64,000 nucleotides of DNA from Rhina ancylostomus (lineage: Eukaryota), in assembly GCA_030265395.1 (NCBI GenBank), contig JARFYF010000017.1:34528229-34592228 (forward strand). The letters are read 5' to 3'. The notes beneath the pieces are model-generated. The model did not search any database. It was not told where the DNA came from and worked only from the letters and a program-made list of their open reading frames with translations. The position numbers and the translations under genes are program-made. Shown here piece by piece: positions 10,966 through 24,460 of the stretch (positions are counted from its first letter, which is position 1; every line of letters begins with the position of its first letter).

Positions 10966-12109
10966 CATACAGTAACTGGAGAAAAAGTCCCAATCCACAA
11001 TTTTACTCCCTTCTCTGGTCTCATTCATTCCCTCCTATTTACATCTCTTCCAGACAGATCAACAGTGATTTTCAAGCCTTCACCACCCTCAGCCAGCACC
11101 ATTCATTCTCTTATGGTTCCAATTTATCACATTTTCATTTTTATCTCCACCCCTTCTCCTTCTCTGCAACGTAAAACATGTTTGATTTCTAACCTTTCCC
11201 AGTTTTGATGGAAGGTCCTCAACCCATAATATTAACTCCGCCTCTATCTGCACAGCTGATCTCCCGAGCTGCTGATTATTTCCAGCATTTTCTGTTTTTA
11301 TCCCCATTTCTGATATTAGCCATAATAAAGGTCTTTCACCACTTCGTGCCTGACAATTTTTTGGAGTATTTGTTATCTTCTGTATTCAACACAGTGTGAG
11401 AAGGTCCACAATTTGGTATGTCTAATGGCTTCTTTCAGAGTGCTTCAGTCCATTATTATATACAAGATGGTAGTCTTGCATAAATAAGCATTGATTGTTT
11501 ATGATAGCATAAGATATATTATTGACGGCAATTTGTGAAAGATTATCAGAGGTGATGCTACTTCCAGTCAAATATACATTTTGTTTTAAATAATGGGCAC
11601 GGAGCTTCTGCTTGATTGCACTGGTTTTGTCGGTGTTATTCACCTCAAATTGGCAAAATGACTGCAAAAGATTGTGGAAATTCAAGTGCAAATTATGTTT
11701 GATGCAAATTGGGTTTGTGCAATGTTTTGTGCTGATCCTCACTAGGTTAGACTAGAATCTATCCCCATCCTTTAAACTGTCATACTATCCCACTACTTCC
11801 CAACCATCCCCACAATCAATACTATTATCCACTTAAAGATTAGTTGGCTCTTTCTGGTGCAAACACACCAAGAAAAACATTTTGAACATACATTTTTTTT
11901 ATAAAAGCTACCAAATTGATTGCGATACCCCAATGTAACTAGCAGCTGTTTTGCCTACTCTTTTTAAAGTAATTTTCAGTTGTTTAAAGCAAGGATGCCC
12001 ACAGGCAGTGAAGCAGATGCGAACAGGTGGAAACAAATTCCCAGTTCCAATTTAAATGTAATTTTTACCTATATTAGCAAAACAGTGGCTAATGATTAAA
12101 TTGCCAGCT

Positions 12110-12470
12110 TTGATAATGCTCTCTCTTTTGAGTCAGAAGGCTGTAGGTTCAGGTCCAACTCCAGAGATCTGAGCACAAAAATCTATCCTGGCACTTCAGC
12201 AGCAACTCAGGGAGTGCTGCACTGTTGGAGATGCCATCCTTCAGATGAAATGTTAAGCTGAGGTTCCACTGGCCTCCCAAATGTGTGTACAAAATCCTGC
12301 AGCATTATTTCAAAATCTAGAAGAAGGAGTCATCCCTGGCCAATATTTACTCCTCAATTGAATCATTAACATCTTCCTCTTCGTGGGTGCTTGCCGTGCA
12401 AAAATTAGCTATCAAGTTTTCAAATGTAATATGATATTGATGGACCACATGTCACATAAATAGAAGTCTT
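12110..12470 (+). mobile_element. Deu-domain SINE (SacSINE1/AmnSINE-like)
   Basis: tRNA-like head (gagtcagaaggctgtaggttcaggtcc) followed by the Deu core gggagtgctgcactgttggagatgccatccttcagatgaaatgttaagctgagg...ccctggccaatattt. Confidence 0.75.
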
Positions 12471-13476
12471 AAATAAATATGTCACTTTTAAATATATCAA
12501 GAATTTTTTTTCTAATTTTCTAGATTAAATTTTAAAACACTATTCAGTTGCGTTGGTTAATGGAAGATGTTGTATTCTGTAATTTGCAAATGAGGCTGAT
12601 TGGCAATCTGAGCCCAAAAGTACAGCAAAGCTAGCAGAATTTTGGCACCAAATTGCACTCAGATTTGTGAACCAGCCCAAAATAGACACACTTGGCACAT
12701 GTCCATTCCATATCAGAATTCCAGAATTATTCCATGGCTGAAGTGCCCTCAATTGCAAAACAAGAAAAAAAATGCTGACATTGAAGGTTTATAAAGGGCT
12801 ATCATCACATAGTTCACATGTTTTATACCATTTTCTTGCAGATCAATTTTGCTATGAATCATCTATATTCTAAATATGGGGAATTATACTAAAATATGCC
12901 AAACACAAATCACATAACATTTCAGAATTAGCATAACACTTTAAAATTACTTAATTTCACAATTTTTAATAAAATCAAAGTGAGAATTTGGAAAAAGTCA
13001 TATATACTTAGGCTTACTTAACCTTTAAAGGAAAGTTTCCTGCAGAAAAACATCTAATAATTCTAGCATCCAACATGCTTCATATGATTCTTTCAAAAAG
13101 TTAAGAAGTAATTGCCATCAGATGAAAATCCTATAAAAGTGAACAGAGCTTTATTTAATGATATATGCAGTTAAGCTACCTTTTCTATACAATTCTGTTC
13201 CATATCAATGGAACTCAGTAATCTTCCACTTTAGATCTGAAACATGTCTTTCTATTCCACATGGATATCGTTCAGAAATGAGTCACTTGGTTTACTTACA
13301 TTGAATCAAAAAATGTTTTTTATTACAATAGCGAAAAATTGTTAAATACAACAGATAGTTCTCAACTGACATCACTAACTGCATTGCACAAAAGTAATGC
13401 ATGTACAGTATGCGAACTGTCAGTGTTTGAAATCTACAAACTCAAGTCTTCAAAGCCTTTAGCACCTAAACATAAA

Positions 13477-13570
13477 GGGCCTGAAATTCCACAGGGGTTC
13501 CCTCAATCTCCTGTTATAACTTCAGCAACTACAGCAGGAGATCAAGACAGGCCCTGCAGAATTTCAGCAC
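13477..13570. repeat. Short imperfect fold-back (MITE-like) element
   Basis: gcctgaaattccacagggg pairs imperfectly with ccctgcagaatttcagcac; inner atctcctgtt pairs with agcaggagat. Confidence 0.5.
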
Positions 13571-14009
13571 CAGATTATTATTTTTCATTCCTGCTGACTG
13601 CTGCTGTAACACTTCCTAAAATAACATGCTTTATTTTTAGTACTCTCATTGAAAGCATATAAAATATATTCGCCATAGCATACTTCTACTGTTGTACACT
13701 TTGCTCTTCTCATTAAGAGGTTTGCCNNNNNNNNNNTGAAATTCCATGGAAGTCTTCCTTTAATTCAGTGGGAGATCTCCCAAGTAAACACAGGAAAACA
13801 GTTATATTGGATCACAGCCTTTTCCTTCAACGTCTGATTGATTTATAAGGCCAAAACTTCTATTTGGTTGCTTCAAGACAAGCAACAAAGCAAGAACATC
13901 CAAGTGTAGTAACTCCCTGAGCAGGTTGATCCAACTGTTGGTTACTGATGTCAAGCAACGTAAATAAATTAAGATAATTTTTAAGCATGTATCAGTTGAT
14001 AAAAGCATA

Positions 14010-14600
14010 GACAATATAATAAGTTAGCAAAGGGAAGTAAGGTAGTTAGTTAACAAGAACCCTCTGGGTGTCTTGGAAACTTAAACATTGTTACTATTAT
14101 TTGTTTGGTAGCACAACTTGGAAGAACCTAGCTATTTGATTCATCATGTGTGAAAAAGAAAATGTACCACTGTATATCTTATCAGTCAGGATCAGGTATA
14201 AAAGTTTGCAAACCTAGTAGCTAGGGGCCAATCAATGGAGGAACCTAGAATGGTCACTAAGCACACTCTCAATCAAAATCTATACAGTCAGTTGTCCAGC
14301 TCTGATCAAGAATTTCTGTATTCACATTCATGTAGTGTGTCCATGTTTTACAACTAATGTGCCGTGACTGACTTTTTCCAATAACTTCAAAGATTCCTTT
14401 ACCAATACGATTGCCCTTGAATATGTAGCAAGTGATATTTTCTAACTACCAATAGCATGAAAACAAAGTGACCCTGAGTTTCCTAAGCAATTAAACCCAT
14501 CTTTAGAAGGCTGATCTGTATCATAATTACTTGGAATAAAGTTGAGTGAAGGACATTCATTGGTGTATTCTCATGTCTTCATGGGTGAACAAATTGGCTG
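14010..14600 (+). mobile_element. Candidate 5' LTR and primer-binding site of a degraded retroelement
   Basis: TATAAAA 14197-14203, AATAAA 14535-14540, ...AACA ending 14591, then TGG at 14595, upstream of the gag-like remnant. The left boundary is a guess. Confidence 0.35.
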
Positions 14601-14811
14601 GTGAATACTTCAAGAATCAATTGATCTCCTTGTTGTTGGAGAAGGCTGCATGCTCAGACCACAGGGTGACCTAAGTCTTGCCAGCAGTGAGGAGACATAT
14701 GCCTCTTTTCTCTTGTTGAATGATTTCACTAAAGAGATAAGTAGCTAAACAATTAAATAAGCAAATCCACAATCAAATAGCATAGAGGGATCATTCATGT
14801 TCATCTCTATT

Positions 14812-14928
14812 GGAACAATGGCTAGAAAGCTTAGCGTAATGCTTTAGAGAGCCAGAGACCCGGGTTCAATTCTGGCTACTGTCTGCAAGGAGTTTGTACG
14901 TTCTCCCCGTGTCTGCGTGGGTTTCCTC
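14812..14928 (+). mobile_element. tRNA-derived V-SINE 5' part (runs into N gap)
   Basis: ttagcgtaatgct...gacccgggttcaattctggctactgtctgcaaggagtttgtacgttctccccgtgtctgcgtgggtttcctc: B-box-like head plus V-domain. Confidence 0.85.
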
Positions 14929-15299
14929 NNNNNNNNNNNNNNNNNNNNNNNNNNNNNNNNNNNNNNNNNNNNNNNNNNNNNNNNNNNNNNNNNNNNNNNN
15001 NNNNNNNNNNNNNNNNNNNNNNNNNNNNNNNNNNNNNNNNNNNNNNNNNNNNNNNNNNNNNNNNNNNNNNNNNNNNNNNNNNNNNNNNNNNNNNNNNNNN
15101 NNNNNNNNNNNNNNNNNNNNNNNNNNNNNNNNAGAAACCTGGAAATGGTGTCATGTGCCATTTTATCCAAGGGCAACAAAGCACCAACTGCAATGCTAAT
15201 GCTTCACTGGCCCACTTTCAAGAACAAAAGAGATAAAATAAGTAATTAAGACAAGAAAATGAAAAGTTAAAAGTATTGAGTTTCAGAGTCCGGAATGTG

Positions 15300-16575
15300 C
15301 CCTGTTAATCTGGTCTGCTTTTGTGGCAATTTTGGATGGGTCAATCCAAGGCGAGAACTGAAGGACGATGAACAGGCCCTTCTGTAAGCAATAACCCTGT
15401 CCTTTAATGGTGATGTGCCAGGTGAACTAAAGGTCAACTGCTCACAGAAATAACCGGTCAAATAACAATCAATTGAGTTAAGATGCAAATGCACTGAGCA
15501 CTCTCGAGTCCCTACTGACCATCCAGTTACCTTTGGCAACCACTTGGCAAACCAAACACTTACCCGGCCAGTGGACCAACCTTAGGGACAAAGAGTTTTG
15601 TAAACAAATGTAGTTATAGGGTTAGCAATCATTGATCAAAACTGATCCAGGTGTACCATCAAAATAAATACGAATTCAGCATGAACAGAGGTTAAGACTA
15701 TGATCCCTAGGACTAAATTCAAGGTAGCTGTAGTGAAAGGCCCCAAAAACTCTCCCTCACGCTCCATGAAAATCTGTTATGACTGTAAAAAGTCAGCCCA
15801 CCATGCAGGACTATTGCTGTGCTTTCTGTAATCTAAATTCTGTTCACTCTTTCATCACCAAATCAACCAAACCTACACCAACAAAAAACTGTCAGTTGTC
15901 CCCATCCTTCGAGAGTCCCATATTCAATAGTCAATGGTGGGATTAGACCTACTGCTCACAGGCGTCATTGGTCCCATGATGGGGAGCATCAACTTGTATG
16001 GGCTGATGTTTCTGAAGTACCCTCATGCAGAAGGGGACTGAAATCATTGTTGTCCATGATTCTAACCCCCCTCCACATGAAACTATTCCATTGAATTTGA
16101 CATATATTCATAAGAATGGTGTGCTCAAAAAGGCCTGATCCCTCTGTTACTGAACATCAGCATTAAAATCAAAGTTAATGAACGATTGTTTAATATGACG
16201 TACAACATAAAGGACATGCTAGGTAGTGGTGTATTAGTCATGCACAATGTTGTTATTGACTTGACCAATATTTGTACCCAGTGGCAGCACCAGGTCTACT
16301 GAGGACTACTGAGTCTGTTTCTGGTGGATACATAGTACTTACTATTAAGAATGCCGAACTGTTAGAACAATATACATCTGAAAATCTAAGATTCCAGCTA
16401 CGTGTGAATGTCTGTTCTATGTTTGCTAAATCTAAACATGATTGTGAGGCTATGAAAGGATAGAAGAGTACTAATGGATCACTTCACTCTACAATTAAAC
16501 ATACAACATAGCAAGAGGGAGTCCATGCACAAGTTACGTGGTCCACACCACAACAGCAAGGTAATGTTTACAGAA
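15300..16575 (+). pseudogene. Degraded retroviral-like gag-protease-RT-start remnant (copy 1)
   Basis: CCHC knuckle CYDCKKSAH/MQDYC with one frameshift (15775-15817); decayed protease active-site-like segment near 15930-15957; retropepsin C-terminal-like DMLGSGVLVMHNVVIDL near 16210-16265; MFAKSKHDC...(KQ)YNIARE...QQG pol entry motifs at 16420-16565. Confidence 0.65.
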
Positions 16576-16867
16576 ACACCTTTACTATTAATTCACTGAC
16601 CGGACATTACAGCAAATGCAAATACTGAATCTTTGCTGAGCCATTACAAAGGGCAGTTAAGAGTCAACCATATCACTGTTTTGTTTGGAGTCACAATGAG
16701 ATTTTCTTCTCTTAAGGTCTTTAATTAAAAAGTTTTGTTTTCTATGATAACTCAGGAACACCTATGAACTAAAATTCTATCTTGTTTCATTGAATTAACA
16801 AATTCCTATGGTGTCATTCGAGCTTGTGTCTCCAGGGTCCATGCCTCTAGTCCACTTGTCCAATGAT

Positions 16868-16974
16868 AAACAGTTTATTTGTTCATTATCTTGCTGTGCG
16901 TAGGATCAAGCTGTCACTTGTCCAGTGACAGCTTGATCCTACGCACAGCAAGGTAATGAACAAATAAACTGTTT
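16868..16974. repeat. Near-perfect inverted repeat (51-bp arms, 5-nt loop)
   Basis: 16868-16918 is the reverse complement of 16924-16974 at 50/51 positions; loop tgtcc. Confidence 0.97.
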
Positions 16975-17694: not shown

Positions 17695-18215
17695 TCAAAG
17701 TCAAAGTCATGTTTACTGTCATATGCACAAGTGCATGTATGCACAGGTGCAATGAAAAACTTACCTACAGCAACATCACAGCATCATATAAGTAGCATTC
17801 ACAAGAAAAACATGAATTAAATATAAATTATGCATAATCTTTTCAAGAAAAAAAACACAATTAGAACAAAAAAAAAGTCCATTTCAGTGCAAAATGGTCA
17901 GTGCGGTCTTAGTGTTGCTAAACTGTAGCGATTAGGGTTTTGCCGGTTGGTTCAAGAACTGAATGGTTGAAGGGAAGTAGCCGTTCTAGAATCTGATGGT
18001 GTGGGACTTTGGGCTTCTGTACCTCCTGCCCGATGCAAAAAGATGGCGTGGCCCGGATAGTGGGGCTCTTTGATGATGGATGTTGCAGCGCCTCCTGTAG
18101 ATACTGATGGTGGGGAGGGATATGTCGGTGATGGGCTGAGTCCACTACTCTCTGCAGATTCTTACGTTCCTGTGCACTCGAATTGCCGCACCAGACCACA
18201 ATGCAACCAGTCAGT
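17695..18215 (-). mobile_element. Rex1/Babar LINE 3' end
   Basis: Minus translation VWCGNSSAQERKNLQRVVDSA (Rex1 RT C-terminal W-x-G-N motif); the 3' UTR mirrors the copy at 24120-24460. Confidence 0.85.
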
Positions 18216-18440
18216 TCTTAACGTACTTCAGAAACTCTTCCCCACTCTTTGCCCTTTGCTATTTCCATCCCAACCTATAATTGGATAATTAAAGTCCCCT
18301 ATTAACACAACTCTGAATTTTGCATATCTTTGCAAGTTCCTTGGAAGTTTGCTTTTGAATACCCTCCTCACTAGTTAGTGGGTTATAGAAAATCCCAGTA
18401 TTATAGTCACTCCTTTATTGTTTCTTAACTTTAAACACAA

Positions 18441-19224
18441 AGACATGGTAGGGAGATCCACTCCCTACCGAAGTCGAGGACTACTGCGTTCCAATCAGGT
18501 GACCCTAACCTTTGCAAGAAATCGAGATACGACCTCCGTAAAGCTTTCAGAGATGTCAAGAGACAATACTGGGAGTCCCAGACCAGCTGTCAGTTGCAGC
18601 AGGGCTTACAGGCTATAACGGGCGACAAAATGAAGTCAGGCAGCATAGTCAACAACAGTGCATCACTTCCTAATGAGCTTAACGCATTCTATGCACGTTT
18701 TGAACAGAAAGAGATTGGTTTGTCACCACCCACCCTGACAGCCTCCAATGCAACTGAACCCGTGATCACCGCCAAGGACATAAGATCAGTGTTCTGGAGA
18801 GAGAACCCAAGGAAAGCATCTGGCCCGGATGGTGTCCCTGCTCATGTCCTCAGATATTGTGCTGATCAGCTGGCAGGGGCATTTTCAGACATATTGAACC
18901 TCTCCCTGCTTCAGTCTGAGGTTCCCACCTGTTTTAAGAAGACCACTATCATCCTGGTACCTAAGAAGAACAAGGTAATGTGCCTTAATGATTACCGACA
19001 GGTGGCTCTGACATCCACCATCATGAAGTGCTTCGAGAGGATGGTCATGACACACATTAACTCCAGCCTCCCAGACAACTTGGACCCACTGCAATTCGCC
19101 TACCACCAAAACAGTTCTACAGTGGATGTCATCTCCCTGGCCCTACACTCATCTCTGGAGCATCTAGACAGTAAAGACACCTACATTAGGCTATTGTTTA
19201 TTGACTACAGCTCCACCTTCAATA
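18441..19224 (+). mobile_element. Rex1/Babar LINE reverse transcriptase fragment (open to the N gap)
   Basis: ORF 18594+: NELNAFYARFE...NPRKASGPDGVPAHVLRYCADQLAG...VPTCFKKTTIILVPKK...LNDYRQVALTSTIMKCFER...DPLQFAY...LLFIDYSSTFN. Confidence 0.93.
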
Positions 19225-19324
19225 NNNNNNNNNNNNNNNNNNNNNNNNNNNNNNNNNNNNNNNNNNNNNNNNNNNNNNNNNNNNNNNNNNNNNNNNNNNN
19301 NNNNNNNNNNNNNNNNNNNNNNNN

Positions 19325-19580
19325 AAGTAGCTGTTCTTAAACTTGGTGGTGTGGGACTTCAGGCGGCTGTACCTGATGGTAGCTGTAAAAAGATGGCTTG
19401 GCCTGGATGGTGGGGATCTTTGATGATGGATTTTGCCTTCTTGAGGCAGCACCTCCTGTTGATACTACCAATGGTGGGGAGGGATGTGCCCGTGATATAT
19501 TAGGCAGCTTCTTATGTTCATGTGCATTCAAATTGCCATACCAGACCATGATGCAATCAGTCAGGATACTTTCAACAGTA
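19325..19580 (-). mobile_element. Rex1/Babar LINE 3' fragment
   Basis: Minus translation TVESILTDCIMVWYGNLNAHEHKKL and IIKDPHHPG...RYSRLKSHTTKFKNSY. Confidence 0.85.
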
Positions 19581-22544: not shown

Positions 22545-22700
22545 ACTTGCTGGAAAACTGAAATTAAAAACAAAAAGTGCTGGAAACACTCAGCTGGTCA
22601 GGCAGCACCTATGGATTCCTTTGTTTTTTTTTCCCCACAGATGCTGCCTGACTTGCTGAGAGTTTCCGGCAGTTTCTGTTTTTAATTTCTGGTTACAGAT
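22545..22700. mobile_element. Non-autonomous element with inverted Penelope-type termini
   Basis: aaattaaaaacaaaaagtgctggaaacactcagctggtcaggcagcacct pairs imperfectly with agatgctgcctgacttgctgagagtttccggcagtttctgtttttaattt. Confidence 0.65.
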
Positions 22701-23975: not shown

Positions 23976-24119
23976 CAATTATGTGTCACTAGAACTTAAA
24001 GAATTATCATAATAAAACTACAGACATATACAAAGCTGCAAAACCTGTAAATTATTCCAAAAAAACAAAAATAATATACTGATAAACACTACTTACTAAA
24101 TATAGCTTTAGTTATACCA

Positions 24120-24460
24120 TTGAGCAGGAGCTACAGAAGCTTGAAGTGCCACACCATCAGGTTCAAGAACAGCTATTTCCCTTCAATAATTTGGTTCTTG
24201 AATCAACCGGCACAACCCTAATCACTGCAGTTTAGCAACACTCCTGACCACTTTTATCACTTTGCATTAAAATAGACTTTATTTTATTCTAATTGAGTTC
24301 TTTCTTGTAAAAATTGTGTATAATTTATGTATAATTTATGTTTTCCTAATGAATGCTGCTTGTATGATGCTATATGACTGTGATGCTGTTACAAGTAAGT
24401 TTTTCATTGCACCTGTGCATACACGTACTTGTGCATATGACAATAAACTCAACTTTGACA
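24120..24460 (+). mobile_element. Rex1/Babar LINE 3' end
   Basis: aggagctacagaagcttgaagtgccacaccatcaggttcaagaacagctatttcc...gcatatgacaataaactcaactttgac, the reverse-complement paralogue of 17695-18030. Confidence 0.85.

Follow-up and report, generated by a model that had tools for sequence, protein, structure and literature searches.

ERVs related to SnRV (clade Huo) occur in all major vertebrate lineages, according to passages of PMC6001957 and PMC4977317, and most ERV loci of cartilaginous fish are class III (Table 2 of PMC11089739, with 2,843 RT loci from 6 genomes). SnRV and the SnRV-like class III ERVs, exemplified here by the NYNRIN-like-annotated proteins of Latimeria, Rhinophrynus, Pyxicephalus and Aquarana, have in common an entry into RT of the form FAxx[KR][HN]DC, a short protease-RT linker, a single CCHC zinc knuckle and a coiled-coil front to Gag. 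One relative comes from the elephant shark: CmiERV scaffold 2 (lineage I), which clusters with SnRV (Han 2015, in portions of PMC4422223) and which, in Dataset 1 of that paper, is near complete and has a clear primer-binding site (PBS) and two LTRs that differ by 3.3%. Lokiretroviruses, as represented in the figures and supplement of PMC7947760, also carry an HDC/YDC motif at the RT entry. Partial background was drawn from accounts of Odin elements (PMC9040795) and FLERVs (PMC5512871); the supplement of the latter contains no matches to the entry motif.

The DNA analysed here, which we call the window, is a 64-kb stretch of a cartilaginous-fish-like genome. Its segment 14010-16595, all of whose features lie on the + strand, shares with SnRV and its relatives the first two of the traits just listed and plausibly, in its probable gag, the other two. 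It holds the decayed front end of an ancient retrovirus of the SnRV branch, not of a lokiretrovirus, and it is ordinary in every respect except its age. The whole is very probably what a class III SnRV-like retrovirus (clade Huo) left behind after one very old insertion into the germline. What is established for the locus is a collinear SnRV-type protease, linker and RT entry, present in single copy, with orthologues in three other organisms, the remainder having been lost within the window. In contrast to SnRV, there is no intact frame, RT core, RNase H, integrase, env or accessory gene: the + frames are all stop-rich (within 15133-16800 no stop-free piece is longer than 85 aa), and the present-day element encodes nothing, is immobile and is inert. 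The RT core being absent, the element cannot be placed in a tree; by the proxy of likeness in protease and RT entry, it belongs with the SnRV-like class III ERVs.

That likeness was judged against a panel comprising two Loki-type elements (L008 and L021, called Loki by their likeness to the Loki-Bsp sequence in the supplement of PMC7947760) with 53 homologues, 31 reference retrovirus genomes, a 10,688-nt genome taken as SnRV (L063; the length given for the SnRV GenBank entry in part of PMC12193657 is the same) and 39 homologues of the front of its Pol. A quick tree built on the RT core of 64 rows, from which rows lacking a YxDD match and redundant viruses were left out, served to define the groups. 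It supports Loki (11 rows) and Gypsy (14) as clades, whereas the SnRV-like set does not form one supported clade but a grade, with three branches leaving an open fork. The panel is thinly sampled in places, with one FLERV-like protein, few fish class I proteins and 14 Gypsy proteins. L008 and L021 are contigs filed under metagenomes, bear near-complete lokiretrovirus-type elements (gag, pol and env ORFs) and are probably host fish DNA.

Profiles of the 250 residues preceding the RT core were aligned, with frameshifts allowed, to 15850-16700, and scores were referred both to 200 dinucleotide shuffles and to the best match elsewhere on both strands of the window. The SnRV-like class III profile scores 74.8 half-bits over 16210-16445, a value that none of the 200 shuffles approaches (maximum 45.9) and that stands above anything elsewhere in the window (at most 45.6). 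When the frameshift cost is lowered, the same profile reaches 86.0 over 16016-16445, starting from the protease active-site region, again with 0/200 shuffles as good. Its last 80 residues by themselves yield 39.6, which no shuffle equals (0/200) yet which falls under the best match elsewhere (44.5); the signal therefore needs the protease. The Loki, foamy, class I and Gypsy profiles all score below their own best chance match elsewhere in the window. Single proteins point the same way, z>=4 being reached by 6/13 SnRV-like proteins, as against 1/44 Loki, 0/13 foamy, 0/19 class I and 0/14 Gypsy proteins; the remaining 7/13 SnRV-like proteins score z<4, and SnRV alone as a single sequence is at background (38). 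By profiles and by single proteins, then, the protease and RT entry are nearest to SnRV-like proteins, as a proxy for membership in clade Huo. The preliminary description of this DNA had proposed a fossil retroelement whose retropepsin-like protease leads into FAKSKHDC and the start of RT, and the collinear block at 16016-16445, which beats all shuffles, bears it out.

Within the block, alignment to the SnRV-like profile delimits a decayed retropepsin-type protease at 16016-16290. Its catalytic motif would have lain at about 16022-16036, where D-T/S-G is no longer present, and its C-terminal LG...IDL block is at 16216-16265; the N-half alone is matched by 4/300 shuffles. Profiles, single-protein scores and motif spacing together define a short protease-RT linker with the RT entry at 16291-16445, the motif FAKSKHDC itself occupying 16422-16445. 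ERV proteins of amphibians and others have the comparable entries FATHKHDCG and FAKHKHDCG, and SnRV has FATHRNDCG; the corresponding pattern counts 7/12 against 0/49, a partly circular comparison, the pattern having been written after the group was seen. From the active site to the first RT block the window spans about 188 aa, within the range of eight SnRV-like proteins (185-215 aa). Downstream, spacing suggests that the start of RT continues through 16446-16595 to the N-S of the first conserved block, about where the element ends: the D-to-NS distance is 50 aa in the window and 52-54 in SnRV-like proteins. The KQY...QQG stretch beyond HDC that had been offered as part of pol (QQG near 16557-16563) accordingly has the expected spacing and ends at the expected N-S, but taken alone it is not significant (124/1000 shuffles as good). 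Compared by eye with a translation from Dataset 1 of PMC4422223, the pol of CmiERV scaffold 2 shows KHDCG followed by NG, H, KQY, QG and FT-NS at similar spacing, and its protease end, LGS...D-TN-C-W, also resembles that of the window.

The entry motif is also what invites a reading of the remnant as a lokiretrovirus, which would be the first in cartilaginous fish. Loki elements enter RT through S-H/Y-D-C-G, and the HDC motif common to them and to SnRV-like elements explains why a Loki affinity had been proposed; the Loki profile registers over 16344-16445 (39.9, with 1/200 shuffles as good), and one lamprey Loki protein attains z 4.2. That profile score, however, is exceeded by the best chance match of the same profile elsewhere in the window (43.4), and the alignment does not reach back to the protease; nor do Loki proteins give a + strand match to the region by tblastn. 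The protease-RT spacing of Loki proteins (573-600 aa in the three measurable by pattern) is three times longer than the 188 aa found here. CCHC is absent from the L008 and L021 ORFs and is found in 0/54 Loki-search proteins, 11 of which exceed 2,200 aa and thus probably include Gag, while Fig. S1 of PMC7947760 places Loki in 0/6 chondrichthyan genomes. The Loki reading is largely refuted, and we consider it highly improbable. A foamy-like (FLERV) or epsilon-like class I ERV, a very improbable identity in our estimation, has some points in its favour: both kinds are known in sharks, fish-type foamy and epsilon elements are thinly sampled in the panel, the compact spacing suits foamy (175-179 aa) and class I (162-191 aa) elements too, and the class I profile climbs to 40.7 (4/200 shuffles) at the lower frameshift cost. 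At the standard cost, nevertheless, the foamy (33.0) and class I (35.4) profiles stay within the shuffles (27 and 13 of 200, respectively), none of their single proteins reaches the z threshold, and the foamy Gags of the panel are without CCHC, whereas the window has the remnant of a knuckle. The epithet 'spuma-like' applied in the preliminary description holds in the loose class III sense, the nearest kin being SnRV-like.

The order CCHC-protease-RT is common to Metaviridae as well, so that a Ty3/Gypsy retrotransposon remnant has to be considered, and the 14 Gypsy proteins compared are a small sample; the Gypsy profile, with a score of 29.0 that 81/200 shuffles equal, and the Gypsy proteins, none of which stands out singly, make it most improbable and agree with the earlier view that the element is retroviral and not ordinary Ty3/Gypsy. 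It could finally be supposed that these are chance motifs in old non-coding DNA, or that 16455-16607 is a decayed protocadherin repeat. Each motif alone is indeed common in the window. One search of the PDB produced three weak protocadherin matches (best E=0.025), another produced 0, and an identification as protocadherin was dropped; no cadherin family is matched in Pfam at E<=1 in these frames. By about 30 half-bits the collinear block outscores every shuffle and everything else in the window, which refutes the chance reading for 16016-16445, though not formally for the stretch past 16446, and leaves it next to negligible overall. An SnRV-like origin is the reading that we retain in what follows.

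Upstream of the protease, a probable decayed gag with many stops and frame changes occupies 15200-15774, as judged by eye from its collinearity with the gag of CmiERV scaffold 2. The end of a coiled coil, LRQENEKL (15246-15269), and CPV (15298-15306) correspond to LRQENDDL and CPV in the elephant shark element as given in Dataset 1 of PMC4422223, which likewise has one CCHC. Here the single knuckle (15775-15817) reads C-X2-C-X4-H, the frame being broken between His and the last Cys; four such motifs with one shifted arm occur in the window. SnRV Gag also has one CCHC knuckle. SnRV's own Gag and Pol start are not above background singly on the window, 73/100 shuffles being as good as the window gag against SnRV Gag, and an MHR profile fares similarly (120/500 shuffles as good). 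Among 25 panel proteins only weak matches at the knuckle were obtained, the best of which, equalled by 0, 2 and 7 of 100 shuffles, were with three Gags that have two knuckles, and an affinity to two-knuckle Gags was not accepted, the matches being weak and limited to the knuckle. The gag(CCHC) of the preliminary description thus keeps its knuckle in place, with the last arm frameshifted, but gains no likeness to Gag above shuffles; on the strength of that knuckle and the motifs seen by eye, a gag identity is plausible. Since a single stop codon separates gag from pol in L063 and both share one frame, read-through probably gave the ancestor its Gag-Pol; in the window itself decay is too advanced to tell.

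The signals from which a 5' LTR had been proposed are at their positions: TATAAAA at 14197-14203, AATAAA at 14535-14540 and CA at 14590-14591, closing a candidate LTR at 14010-14591 with a nominal 5' edge, and a 3-nt spacer before the TGG (14595) of a candidate PBS at 14595-14612. Such signals are common by chance. The sequence AATAAA...CA...TGG recurs 58 times in the window (31 on the + strand and 27 on the - strand) and, when TATAA is included, 26 times on the two strands. At 80% likeness the LTR candidate has single-copy depth in 4/4 runs (5.8-6.3 against flanks of 5.2-8.3 in run X1, and 14.3-16.8 against 13.0-18.6 in X4), copy number being read from assembled contigs, which drop rare variants. 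Neither a second LTR copy nor paired LTRs with a target-site duplication were found in the window, and the search at that likeness returned no solo copies. Such a result is to be expected where a locus is old and truncated, yet with it the LTR stays unproven. The candidate is kept alive by its position and by an AATAAA-to-CA distance of 49 nt, compared with 50 in L063, and the chances that the TATA/AATAAA/CA stretch is the worn 5' LTR of the element are about even. The LTR end of CmiERV scaffold 2, again by eye in Dataset 1 of PMC4422223, has the same arrangement of AATAAA...CA, a 3-nt spacer and TGG.

From the general structure of tRNA, G16 and purine17 are expected in a tRNA-matching PBS, and the panel viruses' PBS carry them; the candidate at 14595-14612 does not. 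It is identical to the two commonest panel PBS at 5/18 positions and to any of the panel's six most frequent candidate 18-mers at no more than 8/18. By this structural check and these panel 18-mers, it does not match the 3' end of a tRNA as it stands. The test that the preliminary description had itself set for the LTR and PBS, by further copies and a tRNA match, thus went against them. The LTR candidate is separated from gag by a high-copy repeat (14820-14929), presumably similar to a shark/ray SINE, recognized by its depth (>100,000 in the bin 14782-14995 against ~6 in the flanks) and by a second copy in the window at 62487-62562; a run of N follows it and reaches 15132. This presumed SINE likeness, together with the closest elements, suggests a shark or ray as the host. 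Set beside CmiERV scaffold 2 by eye, the window has a much shorter leader and gag, no recognisable PBS and no 3' part.

The loss of the 3' part was anticipated in the preliminary description as a truncation before the RT core, and is confirmed for the window. RT core, RNase H, integrase and SnRV-type Env queries gave nothing that stands out in the 64 kb (scores 30-56, none near the element), the SnRV Env query in particular remaining at background; with no Pol or Env match downstream, the truncation is real within these limits. The absence of env here is compatible with an ancestral env, the 3' part having been lost. A medium-copy repeat (16494-16707; depth ~30-40x that of the flanks in 4/4 runs) lies at or just behind the end of the retroviral remnant. 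Beyond it, at 16868-16974, two almost perfectly complementary 51-nt arms form an inverted repeat around a 5-nt loop (z -19.8). Between 16866 and 16929 the orthologous contig in X4 carries ~1,065 bases of other sequence, and in the run that matches the window best the contigs, among those listed, stop at 16812 and restart at 16922; either a deletion by fold-back in this lineage or an artefact of assembly would account for this. A high-copy LINE-type repeat extends over 17695-19500 and has related pieces at 19325-19496 and, inverted, at 24118-24459. In a Pfam scan of 87 ORFs the single match was to RVT_1, by the ORF at 18435-19223 within this repeat (E=2.3e-06), and no host gene is thus identified in the window. 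The 60-nt inverted arms at 22555-22694, 83% complementary and 20 nt apart, are probably two tail-to-tail repeat fragments.

Wider searches contributed little. Pfam returned no relevant family at E<=1 for 9 single frames of the element, a word search of 5.8-billion proteins with the 67-aa RT-entry piece yielded 0/15 relevant candidates, and frame 1 had 0 matches in 1.84-billion representative proteins. Viral contigs, Rfam and ARAGORN provided no relative or relevant match, and the best ESM Atlas value, 0.87, is a lead only. DNA pattern scans found 2 or 0 loci each; 29 metagenome loci resolved into 2 of Loki type, 1 chance match and 26 without an in-frame motif.

The stretch is present in nine runs of four organisms (A-D), of which one run per organism was compared at 80% likeness; no RNA run is among those listed, which has no bearing on expression. 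Contigs of organism D differ from the window at 169 of 2,903 bases (5.8%) over 12000-14885 and at 123 of 1,744 (7.1%) over 15133-16866, and D accordingly shares both flanks, the start of the SINE and the point of 3' truncation; in the pieces covered by organisms B and C the difference is 2-3%. The element is no less diverged than the sequence upstream of it (7.1% against 5.8%; Fisher p=0.10), and there is thus no sign of constraint or co-option. At assumed rates of 0.5e-9 and 2.2e-10, taken from passages of PMC10699275 and PMC4422223, respectively, the uncorrected 7.1% would put the A-D split at ~70 to 160 My, and a locus that is orthologous and already truncated across A-D would then be older than ~70-160 My. 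X4, from organism D, also has a second contig of single-copy depth at ~16420, over the RT entry (29.2 versus 14.3), likely a paralogous family copy.

We picture the history of the locus as germline integration of an LTR-gag-pol-env-LTR provirus that would then have gone to fixation; a SINE would subsequently have inserted into the leader/gag region, and later the 3' part may have been lost, what was left decaying neutrally through stops and frameshifts. It is possible, if somewhat doubtful, that this SnRV-like insertion is orthologous in four cartilaginous-fish species and was interrupted by the SINE and truncated before their split. If so, it would provide a host-calibrated minimum of 70-160 My or more for the SnRV-like branch in sharks and rays, older than the LTR-based date of 75 My for CmiERV (in the part of PMC4422223 that deals with it), and the locus could represent a deep lineage without a close sampled relative. 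The paper listings and abstract openings surveyed disclose no study that uses orthology to date an insertion of this sort in sharks or rays.

Taken alone, the locus has little significance: class III ERVs are the commonest in cartilaginous fish, and SnRV-like ERVs are already known in a chimaera (from portions of PMC4422223). It has two minor uses. An FAxxKHDC entry marks an element as SnRV-like rather than Loki, and an orthologous fossil that lacks RT, while escaping RT-based screens, could act as a host-calibrated age point.
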